This document shows, piece after piece, positions 2,030-7,501 of a stretch of DNA of 7,555 bases. A program made the position numbers and the translations under genes. Source of the stretch: a virus (lineage: Duplodnaviria; Heunggongvirae; Uroviricota; Caudoviricetes). Numbering within the stretch: the first letter of the stretch is position 1; each line of letters opens with the position of its first letter. The DNA lies in the IMG/VR virus record IMGVR_UViG_2744054979_000007; one strand, given 5' to 3'. A model generated the notes under the pieces. That model searched no databases. It was not told the DNA's origin and was given only the letters and a program-made list of their open reading frames with translations.

Positions 2030-2182
2030 ATTAAAGAGCATTAGTTCAGATGTGAATTGACATTTTCATGGCGCAGGGTAGAGCCAGCGTGGTTGTCCGC
2101 TTTGCGTCAAAACCAGATATTACCAGATTTAGACATATATTCCCGATAGCCCTGCTCTGATGCTACACTCTGTGCTATTTTC

Positions 2183-2869
2183 ATGACCCCAATAAAAATA
2201 TTTATGACTATTGCTGATTTCAAACGGCCTAAATTGGAGCTCCCAAACGGGGCAAACAAACTACTACTGCACTCTTGCTGTGCTCCATGTTCCGGTGAAG
2301 TGATGGAGGCGCTTCAGGCCTCGGGAATCGACTACACCATCTTTTTCTACAACCCGAACATTCATCCTCAGAAAGAGTATTTAATTCGTAAGGATGAAAA
2401 TATTCGCTTTGCTGAACAACACGGCGTGCCGTTTATCGATGCTGATTACGACATCGACAACTGGTTTGAACGTGCCAAAGGAATGGAATGGGAGCCTGAG
2501 AGGGGGATCCGTTGTACCATGTGTTTTGACATGCGTTTTGAGCGGACAGCGTTGTACGCTGCTGAAAATGGTTTCAGTGTGATCAGCAGTTCACTGGGCA
2601 TTTCACGCTGGAAAAATATGCAGCAGGTTAACGAGTGTGGGCGGCGAGCTGTTGCGCATTATCCGGGTATGGTGTACTGGGATTATAACTGGCGCAAGCA
2701 GGGCGGCTCGTCCCGTATGATTGAAATCAGCAAGCGCGAAAAATTCTATCAGCAGGAATATTGTGGCTGTGTGTATTCTCTGCGCGATACCAATCTACAC
2801 CGCAAATCTCAGGGACGCCCTCTTATCAAAATTGGCCAACTCCACTACGGAAAAGAAGAGAAGGAGTGA
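2183..2869 (+). CDS. QueH-like (DUF208) Cys-rich metalloprotein, putative cobalamin-independent epoxyqueuosine reductase
   Basis: 228 aa ORF with motifs [16 protein letters not shown] and EYCGC, matching the cysteine pattern I associate with DUF208/QueH. There is no clear Shine-Dalgarno before ATG 2183 or the in-frame ATG 2204, so the start is uncertain. It sits in a non-coding-flanked island (2030-2182 upstream), which looks like a moron insertion. Confidence 0.65.
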
Positions 2870-2934: not shown

Positions 2935-2948
2935 GCGGGTGCTTGAGG
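2935..2948 (+). promoter_or_regulatory. hok mRNA 5' element (tac-like) complementary to the 3' fbi-like element
   Basis: GCGGGTGCTTGAGG (2935-2948) is near-perfectly complementary to CCTCAACGCACCCGC (3312-3326) at the 3' end of the locus, the long-range 5'-3' pairing characteristic of hok-family mRNAs. Confidence 0.5.
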
Positions 2949-3106
2949 CTATCTGTCTCAGGCATGAACACTGAAAGGCAGATAGAGAAAAGCCCCAGTT
3001 AACATTTCGCGTCCTGCAAGACGCTTAACATTAATCTGAGGCCCAATCTATGTCTCACAAATGTAGGTTAGCCTCTTACGTGCCGAAAGGCAAGGGGAAG
3101 CAGGCT

Positions 3107-3262
3107 ATGAAGCAGCAAAAGGCGATGTTAATCGCCCTGATCGTCATCTGTTTAACCGTCATAGTGACGGCACTGGTAACGAGGAAAGACCTCTGCGAGG
3201 TACGACTCCGAACCGGCCAGACGGAGGTCGCTGTCTTCACAGCTTACGAACCTGAGGAGTAA
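3107..3262 (+). CDS. hok: Hok/Gef-family type I toxin (small membrane peptide), HokD/RelF-like
   Basis: 51 aa peptide MKQQKAMLIALIVICLTVIVTALVTRKDLCEVRLRTGQTEVAVFTAYEPEE, nearly identical to the HokD (RelF) sequence as I remember it. The track ORF 3050..3262 is an in-frame upstream extension of 70 aa, possibly corresponding to mok. An antisense Sok RNA is expected opposite the leader but cannot be placed from sequence alone. Confidence 0.9.
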   Translation: MKQQKAMLIALIVICLTVIVTALVTRKDLCEVRLRTGQTEVAVFTAYEPEE

Positions 3263-3326: not shown

Positions 3327-3360
3327 ACTTAACCCGGTTCGGCGGGTTTTGTTTTTTTTT
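3321..3360 (+). terminator. Putative intrinsic terminator of the hok transcript
   Basis: GC-rich arms ACCCGC (3321-3326) and GCGGGT (3342-3347), with an alternative shorter stem CCCG/CGGG at 3333-3346, followed by a T-rich run TTTTGTTTTTTTTT (3347-3360). Confidence 0.55.
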
Positions 3361-3621: not shown

Positions 3622-4677
3622 GTGCGGGTATTACTTCGACCTGTTCTGGTACCGGAACTCGGGCTGGTGATCGTTAAGCCGGGCCGTGAATCCATGCCGG
3701 TATTCCACAATACCCGGGTACTGGTGGAGCCGGAACCGAAAAGCATGCGTAATCTGCCGTCCGGGGTCGTTCCTGCCGTTCGCCAGCCGCTGGCGGAGGA
3801 TAAATCATTACTGCCATTTTTCAGCGACGAACGAGTGATTCGTGCTGCTGGTGGCGCTGGCGCATTGTCTGACTGGTTACTGCGCCATGTTAAATCCTGC
3901 CAGTGGCCACACGGCGATTATCACCACAGTGAAACCGTCATTCACCGTTATGGTACCGGCGCAATGGTGTTGTGCTGGCACTGCGACAACCAGCTGCGCG
4001 ACCAGACCTCCGAATCACTCGGGCAACTTGCTCACCAAAACCTGTTTGCATGGATGATTGACGTCATACGCCATGCAATGAATGGCTCGCAGGAACGGGA
4101 ATTATCGCTGGCTGAATTATCCTGGTGGGCGGTCCGCAATCAGGTGGCGGACGCGCTACCGGAAGCGGTATTACGTCGTTCGCTGGGGTTGCGTGCGGAA
4201 AAAATCCGCTCAATGTACCGTGAAAGCGACATCGTACCGGGAGAGCAGACCGCCACCAGCATACTGAAGCAGCGCACAAAAAATCTTGCGCCGCTGCCTC
4301 ACGCCCACCAGCAAAACCCGCCACAGGAAAAGACGGTGGTCAGCATTGCCGTTGATCCGGAGTCACCGGCTCAGTATCTCCAGCGCCAGAAATCACAACG
4401 GGAAGAGATGCCTGTATACACGCGTTGGGTAAAAACGCAGAAATGCATGACGTGTGGCAATCAGGCAGATGATCCGCATCACATCATTGGTCATGGACTG
4501 GGAGGGATGGGAACAAAGGCTGATGATTTGTTTGTTATTCCGCTGTGCCGTAAATGCCATAGCGAACTACACGCCGGGGTAAAAGATTTTGAAGAAAAAC
4601 ACGGCAGCCAGCTGTTGTTGCTGATTCGTTTTTTAATGCACGCGAGAAATTCGGGTGTTCTGAAGTGGAAAGCATAA
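3622..4677 (+). CDS. DUF968 / YdfU-like prophage protein with a C-terminal Cys/His zinc-binding, HNH-like motif
   Basis: 351 aa ORF with GTG start at 3622 and GGAGGT at 3613-3618 (short spacer). C-terminal motif CMTCGNQADDPHHIIGHG...CRKCHSELH. Assignment to the YdfU family of Qin-like prophages is from memory of the N-terminus MRVLLRPVLVPELG. Confidence 0.8.
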   Translation: MRVLLRPVLVPELGLVIVKPGRESMPVFHNTRVLVEPEPKSMRNLPSGVVPAVRQPLAEDKSLLPFFSDERVIRAAGGAGALSDWLLRHVKSCQWPHGDYHHSETVIHRYGTGAMVLCWHCDNQLRDQTSESLGQLAHQNLFAWMIDVIRHAMNGSQERELSLAELSWWAVRNQVADALPEAVLRRSLGLRAEKIRSMYRESDIVPGEQTATSILKQRTKNLAPLPHAHQQNPPQEKTVVSIAVDPESPAQYLQRQKSQREEMPVYTRWVKTQKCMTCGNQADDPHHIIGHGLGGMGTKADDLFVIPLCRKCHSELHAGVKDFEEKHGSQLLLLIRFLMHARNSGVLKWKA

Positions 4678-5058
4678 ATGACTGAACGCATAGAATTTGT
4701 TTTGCCTTACCCGCCAACGGTGAACACTTACTGGCGTCGTCGTGGCAGCACATATTTTGTATCAAAAGCCGGGGAGCGTTATCGCCGGGCAGTGGCGCTT
4801 ATTGTTCGCCAGCAGCGGCTGAAATTAAGCCTGTCCGGAAGGTTGGCAATAAAAATTATTGCAGAACCACCGGATAAGCGCCGCCGTGATCTGGACAATA
4901 TTCTGAAAGCGCCGCTGGATGCGCTGACGCATGCGGGGTTGCTAATGGACGATGAGCAGTTTGATGAAATCAATATCGTTCGTGGTCAGCCAGTATCTGG
5001 TGGACGTCTGGGGGTGAAGATTTACCCCATAATGCATGAAGAGCAGGTCAAAAAATGA
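4678..5058 (+). CDS. rusA: RusA-family Holliday junction resolvase
   Basis: 126 aa ORF whose ATG 4678 directly follows the upstream TAA (4675-4677). The motif PDKRRRDLDNILKAPLDALTHAGL matches the RusA acidic catalytic core (RRRDLDN...DAL), and size and position before Q are typical. Confidence 0.9.
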   Translation: MTERIEFVLPYPPTVNTYWRRRGSTYFVSKAGERYRRAVALIVRQQRLKLSLSGRLAIKIIAEPPDKRRRDLDNILKAPLDALTHAGLLMDDEQFDEINIVRGQPVSGGRLGVKIYPIMHEEQVKK

Positions 5059-5876
5059 AACTGGAAGATTTACCGAAATACTACTCCCCAAAATCCCCCG
5101 GCCTGACTGATGCATCGGCCTCAACGTCGAAAGATGCGCTGAGTATCACTGATGTGATGGCCGCGCAGGGCATGACACAGAATCGGGCTGAGATGGGGTT
5201 TTCTGCGTTCCTGGGGAAAATGGGCATCAGTATGAATGACAGGGCGCGGGCAACAGAATTACTGGCAGATTATGCACTCAGTCGGTGCGATCGTGTGGCG
5301 GCGTTGAGAAAACTTCCGGCAGAAATAAAACCGGTAGTGATGCGCATTATGGCTTCGTACGCTTTTGAGGATTATGCCCGCAGCGCAGCGAGTAAAAAGC
5401 AGTGCCCCTGTTGCCGAGGGGAAAAATTTATTGAAGGCGAAGTTTTTACAAACAAGGTTCAGTATCCGGATGGCAAGCCGCCAGTATGGGCAAAGTGTAC
5501 GAAAGGTGTGTATCCGTCTTACTGGGAAGAATGGAAAAAAATTCGGGAGGTGGTGAAAGTTTCTTGTCCTGAATGTAAAGGGAAGGGGGAGATTTCCACT
5601 GCCTGTAAAGACTGCCGTGGGCGTGGTGTCGCCATTCATCGTGAAGAGTCGGTAAAACGTGGTATGCCTGTTATCAGAGACTGCCAGCGTTGTGGTGGTC
5701 GTGGCTGTGAAAGACTACCATCAACGGAGGCATTTAATGCCATATGCAAAGTGACGAGTGCTATCACGCTTGATACGTGGAAAAAATCAGTGAAACGCTT
5801 TTACGATACGTTGGTGGTTCGGTTTGACATTGAAGAGGCATGGGCGGAGCGGCAGTTAAAGAGGGTAACGCGATAG
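5055..5876 (+). CDS. Late-gene antiterminator Q (long, Cys-rich QuuQ/Q82-like type)
   Basis: 273 aa ORF whose ATG 5055 overlaps the rusA stop as ATGA. Its position immediately upstream of a promoter and short-transcript terminator fits Q. It carries CPCCRGEK, CPECKGKG, CKDCRGRG and CQRCGGRG zinc-finger-like repeats. Confidence 0.8.
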   Translation: MKLEDLPKYYSPKSPGLTDASASTSKDALSITDVMAAQGMTQNRAEMGFSAFLGKMGISMNDRARATELLADYALSRCDRVAALRKLPAEIKPVVMRIMASYAFEDYARSAASKKQCPCCRGEKFIEGEVFTNKVQYPDGKPPVWAKCTKGVYPSYWEEWKKIREVVKVSCPECKGKGEISTACKDCRGRGVAIHREESVKRGMPVIRDCQRCGGRGCERLPSTEAFNAICKVTSAITLDTWKKSVKRFYDTLVVRFDIEEAWAERQLKRVTR

Positions 5877-5980: not shown

Positions 5981-6102
5981 ATGACTGAAATCGCGTCAGT
6001 ACAGTAAACGCGCTGGTGGCGGTGAATACCTGTCTTTCAGCTTGCTGGCTTTTTCGACAAGAGTTATTGGTGTGTCACGTTAACCGGAAAAGGGAAAAAG
6101 AC

Positions 6103-6300
6103 ATGCTGAAACAGCAGGATATGACAGAAACCGCCAGAGTGGTGTTTAATGAATTAAGCGTCACCGAACCGGCGACAGCCGGGGAGATTGCGCAGAATAC
6201 TTACCTTTCACGCGAACGCTGCCAGTTAATACTGACCCAGCTGGTTATGGCGGGTCTGGCAGACTATCAGTTCGGTTGTTACAGACGCCTTCCGCAGTGA
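6103..6300 (+). CDS. Small winged-helix/HTH-like putative DNA-binding protein (65 aa)
   Basis: ATG 6103 has AGGGA (6091-6095) 7 nt upstream; the track start GTG 6016 has no ribosome-binding site. The segment ATAGEIAQNTYLSRERCQLILTQLVMAGLA looks like a helix-turn-helix recognition unit. Stop at 6298-6300 lies inside a terminator hairpin. Confidence 0.6.
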   Translation: MLKQQDMTETARVVFNELSVTEPATAGEIAQNTYLSRERCQLILTQLVMAGLADYQFGCYRRLPQ

Positions 6301-6310
6301 AGGCTTTTTT
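6287..6310 (+). terminator. Intrinsic terminator overlapping the stop of the small gene
   Basis: Stem GCCTTC (6287-6292) / GAAGGC (6299-6304) with loop CGCAGT, followed by TTTTTT (6305-6310). Confidence 0.65.
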
Positions 6311-6327
6311 ATTTGTGGTAAATGGGC

Positions 6328-6358
6328 GGCTGGTGGGTGTTAGGGGCACCCACCAGCC
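6328..6358. promoter_or_regulatory. Perfect 12-bp inverted repeat (candidate operator or RNA hairpin) upstream of the methyltransferase gene
   Basis: GGCTGGTGGGTG (6328-6339) and CACCCACCAGCC (6347-6358) are exact reverse complements around a 7-nt loop, with no T-run after. A 10-bp perfect palindrome TTTGCGCAAA (6405-6414) and a direct repeat CCATCTGCT (6357-6365, 6397-6405) lie nearby. Confidence 0.4.
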
Positions 6359-6451
6359 ATCTGCTCATGCGTTGGGGTCACAAGCAAACCTCAGGCCCAT
6401 CTGCTTTGCGCAAAAGCGGTATGAGCCTATCAGAGAAGTGCTTATTGATCT

Positions 6452-7501
6452 ATGGCTAATACTGTAAAAATATCCAGTTGTGAGTTAATCAACGCCGACT
6501 GCCTGGAATTTATCCGGTCGTTACCCGAAAATTCTGTTGACCTGATAGTCACGGACCCGCCGTACTTTAAAGTGAAGCCTGAGGGCTGGGATAACCAGTG
6601 GAAAGGGGACGAAGATTACCTTAAGTGGCTGGACCACTGTCTGGCCCAGTTCTGGCGGGTGTTAAAACCTGCCGGAAGCCTTTACCTGTTCTGTGGGCAT
6701 CGCCTGGCATCTGATATCGAAATCATGATGCGTGAACGCTTCAGTGTGCTGAACCATATTATCTGGGCGAAGCCGTCCGGACGCTGGAACGGATGCAACA
6801 AGGAAAGCCTGCGGGCGTATTTCCCCGCCACAGAGCGCATTCTGTTCGCGGAACATTATCAGGGGCCGTATCGTCCGAAAGATGCCGGGTATGCGGCGAA
6901 GGGCAGTGCACTGAAACAGCATGTGATGGCCCCGCTGATTTCTTACTTTCGTGATGCGCGCGCGGCCCTGGGGATAACGGCAAAACAGATTGCAGATGCC
7001 ACAGGAAAGAAAAACATGGTGTCGCACTGGTTCAGTGCCAGTCAGTGGCAGCTACCGAACGAAAGCGATTATCTGAAATTACAGTCGCTGTTTGCCCGGG
7101 TGGCAGAAGAGAAACATCAGCGCGGTGAACTGGAAAAGCCCCACCACCAGCTGGTGGATACGTATACGTCACTGAACCGGCAGTATGTGGAGCTGCAGAG
7201 TGAATATAAGCATCTGCGGCGGTATTTTGGTGTGACGGCGCAGGTGCCGTACACGGATGTGTGGACACATAAACCGGTGCAGTTCTATCCCGGGAAACAT
7301 CCGTGCGAAAAACCGGCAGAAATGCTGCAGCAGATAATCAGCGCAAGCAGTCGTCCGGGTGACCTGGTTGCAGATTTTTTTATGGGCTCAGGTTCAACGG
7401 TAAAAGCGGCACTGGCGCTCGGGCGTCGTGCGATTGGCGTTGAGCTGGAGACCGGACGTTTTGAGCAGACAGTCAGGGAAGTTCAGGGTTTAATCGTTTG
7501 A
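6452..7501 (+). CDS. Beta-class (motif IV before motif I) DNA N6-adenine/N4-cytosine methyltransferase, apparently an orphan
   Basis: 349 aa ORF with the catalytic motif DPPY (in LIVTDPPYF) near the N-terminus and the AdoMet-binding motif FFMGSGST near the C-terminus, preceded by HPCEKPAEMLQQII. This arrangement matches YhdJ/CcrM-type enzymes. No restriction endonuclease gene is present in the window. The ribosome-binding site is weak. Confidence 0.9.
   Translation: MANTVKISSCELINADCLEFIRSLPENSVDLIVTDPPYFKVKPEGWDNQWKGDEDYLKWLDHCLAQFWRVLKPAGSLYLFCGHRLASDIEIMMRERFSVLNHIIWAKPSGRWNGCNKESLRAYFPATERILFAEHYQGPYRPKDAGYAAKGSALKQHVMAPLISYFRDARAALGITAKQIADATGKKNMVSHWFSASQWQLPNESDYLKLQSLFARVAEEKHQRGELEKPHHQLVDTYTSLNRQYVELQSEYKHLRRYFGVTAQVPYTDVWTHKPVQFYPGKHPCEKPAEMLQQIISASSRPGDLVADFFMGSGSTVKAALALGRRAIGVELETGRFEQTVREVQGLIV

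Follow-up and report, generated by a model that had tools for sequence, protein, structure and literature searches.

What would a lambdoid prophage gain from a gene for the last step of tRNA queuosine synthesis when its host already encodes an enzyme for that step? The question is raised by a 7,555-nucleotide (nt) stretch of viral DNA (IMG/VR record IMGVR_UViG_2744054979_000007), the whole of which is referred to here as the window. It reads as the early-right region of a lambdoid prophage and, judged from its sequence, is of the Rac/Qin-like lambdoid type of Escherichia coli. Between a DUF977 gene and a hok/sok toxin-antitoxin module lies queH, which encodes a member of the cobalamin-independent epoxyqueuosine (oQ) reductase family. 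It is probable that this is a functional QueH on a mobile cassette, enabling lysogens to complete queuosine independently of vitamin B12; enzymatic activity, transcription from the repressed prophage and a fitness benefit are what we infer from the comparisons described below.

Identity of the encoded protein

The gene and its cysteine motifs, with residues numbered from the ATG at 2204, are located as follows.

2183/2204-2869, + strand: queH open reading frame (ORF), with two candidate start codons
2204-2869, + strand: queH coding sequence, 221 amino acids plus TGA, cobalamin-independent epoxyqueuosine reductase according to Pfam, PDB sequence match, predicted fold and RefSeq name
2276-2290, + strand: HSCCAPC motif (C25, C26 and C29)
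2513-2524, + strand: CTMC (CxxC) motif (C104 and C107), aligned with CERC of 7lc5
2762-2770, + strand: CGC motif (C187 and C189), aligned with CGC of 7lc5

The original prediction had recognised a QueH-like gene by these three motifs, all of which are present. A profile search identified the family unequivocally, as the protein matched PF02677 (QueH / IPR003828, formerly DUF208) over profile positions 1-174 of 175 with 221.3 bits (E 1.2e-65), roughly ten times the gathering score of 23.5. The sequence of the solved Thermotoga maritima QueH (PDB 7lc5) was matched at E 1.4e-21, with the CC, CxxC and CGC cysteines all aligned. Structure prediction led to the same enzyme: an AlphaFold2 (AF2) model built from 30 homologues (predicted local distance difference test, pLDDT, 77; predicted template modelling score, pTM, 0.78) retrieved 7lc5, 7lc7, 9d86, 9deu and 9dco as its five best Foldseek matches, all of them T. 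maritima QueH (E ~1e-10 to 3e-11; modelled template modelling (TM) score normalised to target 0.82-0.85; root-mean-square deviation (rmsd) 2.5-3.8 Å), followed only by distant AANH-fold enzymes such as TtuA and LarE. These Pfam, sequence and fold matches go far beyond chance, and the protein also nests within Enterobacterales QueH in a neighbour-joining (NJ) tree drawn without bootstrap values. Membership of the QueH family is thus confirmed by profile, motifs, predicted fold and phylogeny.

The predicted fold is shared with T. maritima QueH (7LC5, 7LC7, 9DEU; TM score normalised to target 0.85 and rmsd 2.6 Å over 180 columns for the model), as are the aligned CC, CxxC and CGC cysteines, whereas sequence identity is only about 30% and the window protein is longer by about 19 residues at the N-terminus and 25 at the C-terminus, both extensions being modelled with low confidence. 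C25, C26 and C29 align with C9, C10 and D13 of the T. maritima enzyme, so that its Asp13 (CCAPD) is replaced by Cys29 (CCAPC). The positions of C9 and D13 can be deemed important, since the PDB holds a C9S (9d86) and a D13N (9dco) mutant of T. maritima QueH. Among 150 family representatives obtained by clustering at 50%, CCAPC occurs in 108 and CCAPD in 4; as CCAPC is the majority form, the window protein has the typical one. CCAPC, CxxC and CGC are invariant in 30 close homologues, the motif cysteines are invariant in distant homologues as well, and every family-invariant residue is present. Some QueH-family representatives (P0125, P0129, P0134, P0138 and others) are long fusions of 700-1400 amino acids with the QueH domain at the C-terminus.

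Given these data, a chance cysteine pattern or a different AANH-fold enzyme is barely credible. Such a reading could point to the scan with NCBIfam release 20, in which no model matched the protein and the PGAP name is left without a traceable hidden Markov model, and to PHROGs v4, where phrog_3217 is labelled 'unknown function'. It has to contend with a full-length Pfam match far above threshold, with the agreement of sequence and fold with a solved QueH, and with the retention of all family-invariant residues. The PHROGs profile begins at residue 34 and so does not contain CCAPC. The RefSeq product name is already 'epoxyqueuosine reductase QueH'; with family, reaction and protein name on record, the identification itself adds nothing new, and the gene is typical of this established family.

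The gene had been proposed to extend over 2030-2869. Its end at 2869 stands, while 2030-2203 is non-coding and the start is the ATG at 2204. The longest version of this + strand ORF runs from 2183 to 2869, but the in-frame ATG at 2183 is ATT in other prophage alleles (e.g. the GPEC657 allele) and in plasmid alleles, and was rejected as unconserved. The ATG at 2204 is invariant, aligns with the start of the chromosomal orthologues and is also the RefSeq start; since the chromosomal orthologues start at this position and 2183 is not conserved, it is taken as the true start. Initiation at M34, where the PHROGs profile begins, was likewise rejected, as it would remove the CCAPC motif.

Distribution of mobile queH copies

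By megablast, the 840-nt region (2030-2869) was found in 1032 of 5426 complete E. coli genomes (19%), across many lineages. It is nearly always a single chromosomal copy, and 984 of the 1032 carriers cover at least 80% of it. The carriers include O104:H4, sequence type (ST) 131 (EC958, JJ1886), ST95, O111:H11 and some O157:H7 strains. In O104:H4 the copy lies in a prophage adjoining ompW, in the order DUF977, queH, hokD, DUF968, rusA, Q, methyltransferase and tRNA genes. The predicted location in a lambdoid prophage next to hok/sok thus proved correct. Escherichia phage HannyBb, an isolated and complete 45-kb temperate siphovirus, holds a 94.7% identical copy in the same slot, and this gene (CDS0046) is annotated 'hypothetical protein'.

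Mobile queH was found in lambdoid prophages of E. coli and E. albertii and on IncF plasmids of Klebsiella and Salmonella. About 190 viral contigs in IMG/VR carry this allele group. A family-wide scan by exact pattern, which can miss divergent QueH members, gave 213 QueH-encoding viral contigs in all, and because 150 of the 153 retrieved loci belong to the lineage described here, nearly all QueH seen in viral contigs represents this one lambdoid lineage. The only three retrieved viral contigs with a QueH of another type than that of the E. coli lambdoid phages (L174, L178 and L193 in IMG/VR) show 75%, 41% and 39% amino acid identity, respectively.

On the plasmid side, 11 PLSDB records of conjugative IncF plasmids of K. 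pneumoniae contain queH at about 83% nucleotide identity (e.g. pRHB38-C06_2, positions 6048-6716 of the retrieved locus L247). A single record from S. enterica Gaminara, the IncF plasmid pCFSAN024441_02 (6050-6718 of L248), contains it at 91% nucleotide and 95.9% amino acid identity. These plasmid copies are flanked by insertion sequence elements and other cargo. Since both plasmids and prophages carry the gene, mobile elements have repeatedly brought a B12-independent oQ reductase into Enterobacteriaceae that are better known for their QueG; queG itself was confirmed in E. coli only.

QueA, QueG and QueH were all absent from the viral 7-deazaguanine genes surveyed by Hutinet et al. 2019 (PMC6884629). 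By contrast, queH is carried on a lambdoid prophage in roughly a fifth of the complete E. coli genomes, and by the isolated phage HannyBb as well. Phage resources (PHROGs phrog_3217 and the HannyBb annotation) have not linked the family to QueH, and a literature search found no paper on prophage or plasmid queH copies. Together, the contrast with the survey, the annotation gap and the recurrence on plasmids suggest real selection for B12-independent queuosine. The interest of the locus rests on the idea that an enzyme of tRNA-queuosine maturation serves mobile elements as a conversion gene.

Cassette structure and expression signals

The coding sequence is bordered by the following elements.

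2030-2160, no strand: non-coding spacer from the DUF977 stop (2029) to the promoter-like element; left-hand recombination junction zone
2161-2169, + strand: TGCTACACT, extended -10-like promoter element (TGn + TACACT), ending 34 nt before the ATG at 2204
2170-2203, + strand: short A/U-rich 5' leader, predicted, without a Shine-Dalgarno sequence and holding the unconserved ATG 2183
2870-2936, no strand: spacer between queH and sok/hok; right-hand recombination junction zone

Comparison of the loci shows queH, between the DUF977 gene and hok/sok, as a cargo cassette complete in itself. From one prophage to another, homology sets in at window position 2030, 2088, 2133 or 2155 and breaks, depending on the prophage, at about +0, +40, +60, +100, +120, +180 or +220 nt after the stop codon. 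With breaks some 50-175 nt upstream and 0-220 nt downstream of the gene, and with neighbours that differ between prophages, the separately acquired cassette postulated in the original prediction is well borne out. Every version retains the coding sequence and about 50 nt upstream of it, including TGCTACACT. The distribution is that of a phage moron, present in some and absent from other related phages at a module boundary (1032 of 5426 genomes, with differing flanks). The GC content of the cassette (0.48) hardly differs from that of its flanks (0.51-0.52), and no ORF with a family match was found in 2030-2160.

In prophages queH is always preceded by the DUF977 gene, and the downstream neighbour is hokD, a KwaB-like gene or a DUF1971 gene on the opposite strand. 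The left junction is in some prophages adjoined by a truncated methyltransferase pseudogene, an indication that a nin-region methylase gene lost its 3' end when the cassette was inserted. The pseudogene ends about 14 nt inside the left homology edge in E. coli FHI_NMBU_03 (4829-5014 of the retrieved locus L010) and in HannyBb (7762-7968 of L002). In a prophage of E. coli O169:H41 (6049-7688 of L013), a hypothetical gene and a KwaB-like (Kiwa) anti-phage gene replace hok/sok downstream of queH. As the KwaB-like gene occupies this slot, the region from the replication genes to gene Q looks like a hotspot for cargo and defence genes. A PADLOC defence-system scan gave no match for QueH or its immediate neighbours, and a defence function of queH was dropped on that account.

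The absence of a Shine-Dalgarno sequence, noted earlier, holds for the ATG at 2204, which is preceded by ...CCAATAAAAATATTT, and is shared by the closest chromosomal orthologues. A conserved element was found further upstream: 142 of the 157 prophage loci contain TGCTACACT without a mismatch, most of the others being one base off, and the plasmid copies also carry it, 43 nt before the ATG. Either TGCTACAAT or TGCTACACT stands at the same distance in chromosomal copies from Scandinavium, Kluyvera, Enterobacter, Symbiopectobacterium and Erwinia, in which the upstream DNA is otherwise unrelated. Among 80 non-prophage (chromosomal and plasmid) copies, 23 have a match to TGnTAnnnT 30-55 nt upstream, compared to about 3% of shuffled sequences. 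The element is therefore predicted to be an extended -10 promoter that travels with queH. A resemblance to a Fur or IscR half-site over the promoter region, seen by eye in some alleles, was not conserved in the alignment and was dropped. An Rfam scan of the whole window (E <= 0.1), in which a preQ1 or cobalamin riboswitch was sought, returned sok only, and the hairpin at 2862-2935 after the queH stop is no better than shuffled sequences (z -1.57).

A different role would follow if queH were transcribed from the early-right operon after induction, so that a functional QueH completed Q34 on host tRNA during the lytic cycle, to the advantage of phage genes rich in NAU/NAC codons. The gene is read in the same direction as the replication, nin and Q genes, a generic scan called no terminator on either side of it, and the tRNA genes downstream of Q in these prophages speak of an investment in translation. 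It is nevertheless unlikely that the gene mainly serves lytic growth. The promoter-like element common to chromosomal and plasmid copies points to expression without phage transcription, the cassette is also kept on IncF plasmids, which have no lytic cycle, and tRNA turnover is slow compared to the lytic cycle.

Origin and selection

The statement in the original prediction that enterobacteria normally use QueG is correct for E. coli but does not hold generally, as many Enterobacterales have a chromosomal queH. Carriers include Erwinia, Providencia, Photorhabdus, Serratia, Pectobacterium, Kluyvera, Enterobacter and Scandinavium. The window protein is 88-91% identical to the chromosomal proteins of Scandinavium, Kluyvera and Enterobacter and 78-87% identical to those of other Enterobacterales, and across Proteobacteria the range is 75-91%. 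Chromosomal Enterobacterales copies agree with the window copy in length, start, cysteine motifs and the TGCTACA(C/A)T element about 43 nt before the ATG. They differ in that theirs stand in non-phage neighbourhoods, whereas the window copy is in a lambdoid prophage of a queG-bearing host. In Erwinia the order is purL-queH-glrK and in Providencia queH lies between tmcA and purC, while in Enterobacter, Kluyvera and Scandinavium its neighbours are ordinary chromosomal genes, with none of the window's phage genes nearby.

In an NJ tree without support values, the eight alleles from phages and prophages group together as a single clade, with Scandinavium, Kluyvera and Enterobacter as its sister group. 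The gene thus probably stems from a single capture, its donor being the chromosome of a relative within the Enterobacteriaceae. Being 88-91% identical to the housekeeping queH of these relatives and nesting within them, it gives no sign of neofunctionalisation.

Pairwise comparison of seven prophage alleles by the Nei-Gojobori method gave ratios of nonsynonymous to synonymous substitution (dN/dS) of 0.03-0.09 at dS up to 0.44. The ORF is intact in all 157 phage and prophage loci (221 or 222 amino acids; 16 protein variants), with the motif cysteines unchanged in every one of them. The prophage alleles are accordingly judged, by their substitution pattern, to be under strong purifying selection, and the low dN/dS together with the 157 intact ORFs argues against a decaying passenger gene. 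The hypothesis of a neutral passenger that hitch-hiked into a lambdoid cargo hotspot and is useless there would accommodate the varied cargo of the slot (hok/sok, a KwaB-like gene, a DUF1971 gene and methyltransferase remnants), and loss of queuosine maturation has little known phenotype (PMC11841063). It is quite improbable in view of the constraint just described, the lack of a single pseudogene among the 157 loci and the carriage by 19% of complete E. coli genomes in many lineages and by plasmids too.

Probable role in lysogens

E. coli is unable to make B12 de novo and has, in QueG, only a B12-dependent enzyme for the step from oQ to queuosine; lysogens carrying queH would for that reason be able to complete Q34 without a cobamide. 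The check for queG in the host was positive throughout, as the gene is present in all 5426 complete E. coli genomes and hence in every queH carrier. The most likely role of the prophage enzyme would thus be that of a B12-independent backup turning oQ34 into Q34 in host tRNA. Reportedly, Acinetobacter baylyi ADP1 encodes both QueG and QueH, in its case on the chromosome, whereas here the second reductase arrives by prophage or, in Klebsiella and Salmonella, by plasmid. It is also said that duf208/queH genes from several bacteria restored queuosine in an E. coli queG mutant; if so, QueH is able to function in that host.

The two reductases catalyse the same last step, the conversion of oQ-tRNA to queuosine-tRNA, and are non-homologous; the full queuosine pathway has been described in E. 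coli (PMC5372724). According to PMC4646009, the QueG reaction is cobalamin-dependent and a K-12 yjeS (queG) knockout accumulates oQ; a backup enzyme is thus lacking in K-12. QueG is a chromosomal core gene, unlike the queH described here, which is accessory and mobile.

The following mechanism can be proposed. QueH, as an iron-sulfur, cobalamin-independent enzyme, would convert oQ to queuosine at position 34 of tRNA-Asp, -Asn, -His and -Tyr. Its compact cassette travels in the early-right region of Rac/Qin-like lambdoid phages of E. coli; besides the coding sequence, it comprises a putative extended -10 promoter and a short leader that lacks a Shine-Dalgarno sequence. After capture from an Enterobacteriaceae chromosome it would have been retained under purifying selection and shuffled among phage backbones. 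Lysogens may then finish queuosine synthesis even when no cobamides are available, and queH would act as a lysogenic-conversion or auxiliary metabolic gene.

Several observations weigh against this reading of a functional, independently expressed cassette. A generic sigma-70 scan called no + strand promoter upstream of queH, and no -35 element was found. The stretch from 2869 to the hok/sok module yielded no intrinsic terminator. Lacking a terminator behind it, the gene departs from the textbook moron with a promoter and a terminator of its own, and on induction it would also be transcribed by early-right read-through. The confidence of the AF2 model is only moderate (pLDDT 77). Several captures from different chromosomes would also give a low dN/dS, though the NJ tree (without support values) argues otherwise. 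Finally, deletion of queG had no growth phenotype in one E. coli study (PMC11841063).

A more tentative extension, which may well not hold, is that mobile queH is a selected 'epitranscriptomic conversion' gene, switching oQ to queuosine when cobamides are scarce in hosts that otherwise rely on QueG. Such scarcity could arise through loss of BtuB or competition in the gut. If so, the switch from oQ to queuosine could alter decoding or the susceptibility to toxins that target Q34-containing anticodons, and QueH would be the first virus-borne enzyme dedicated to tRNA queuosine maturation.

The original prediction had further considered action on 7-deazaguanine intermediates, and a substrate other than tRNA-bound oQ, for instance a 7-deazaguanine base in phage DNA or a free salvage intermediate, is conceivable in so far as phages are known to use preQ0-derived DNA bases (PMC6884629) and one PDB entry contains QueH with free queuosine and another with guanosine monophosphate, so that small ligands can bind. 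Phage clusters for 7-deazaguanine DNA modification (DpdA with FolE, QueD, QueE and QueC) resemble the present case in being phage-borne genes of the queuosine/7-deazaguanine pathway. They differ in that they make preQ0-type bases and insert them into DNA, whereas here a late-pathway, tRNA-specific enzyme stands alone. No DpdA/TGT-family domain was found in the ten window proteins scanned with Pfam or in the HannyBb annotation, and neither the window nor that annotation contains the preQ0 synthesis genes folE, queD, queE or queC. No DNA modification derived from oQ is among those described by Hutinet et al. 2019 (PMC6884629). A role in DNA modification was rejected on the absence of DpdA and the preQ0 genes from the window and HannyBb, action on such intermediates found no support, and any substrate other than oQ in tRNA is considered highly improbable.

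Neighbouring genes in the window

The remaining features of the window are the following.

50-796: DnaC-like helicase loader
818-1588: DUF1627 protein
1589-2029: DUF977 protein, with its stop at 2029
2937-3262: complete hok/sok type I toxin-antitoxin module
3622-4677: DUF968/HNH protein
4678-5058: RusA
5055-5876: Q-type antiterminator
6016-6300: 94-amino-acid ORF between Q and the methyltransferase
6452-7501: orphan-looking N6/N4 DNA methyltransferase just past the Q antiterminator

The hok locus expected next to queH was found as an Rfam match to sok at 2937-3112 (120 bits) and a Hok-family ORF (Pfam HOK_GEF) ending at 3262. The 94-amino-acid ORF gave no match in Pfam and NCBIfam scans, and corresponds to phrog_331 (unknown function) with 143 bits. 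The methyltransferase matched Pfam N6_N4_Mtase and PADLOC MTase_II (548 bits). A terminator-like hairpin with a T-run is located at 3331-3348, downstream of the Hok ORF, and in O104:H4 the methyltransferase is followed by genes for tRNA-Ile, tRNA-Arg and tRNA-Arg.

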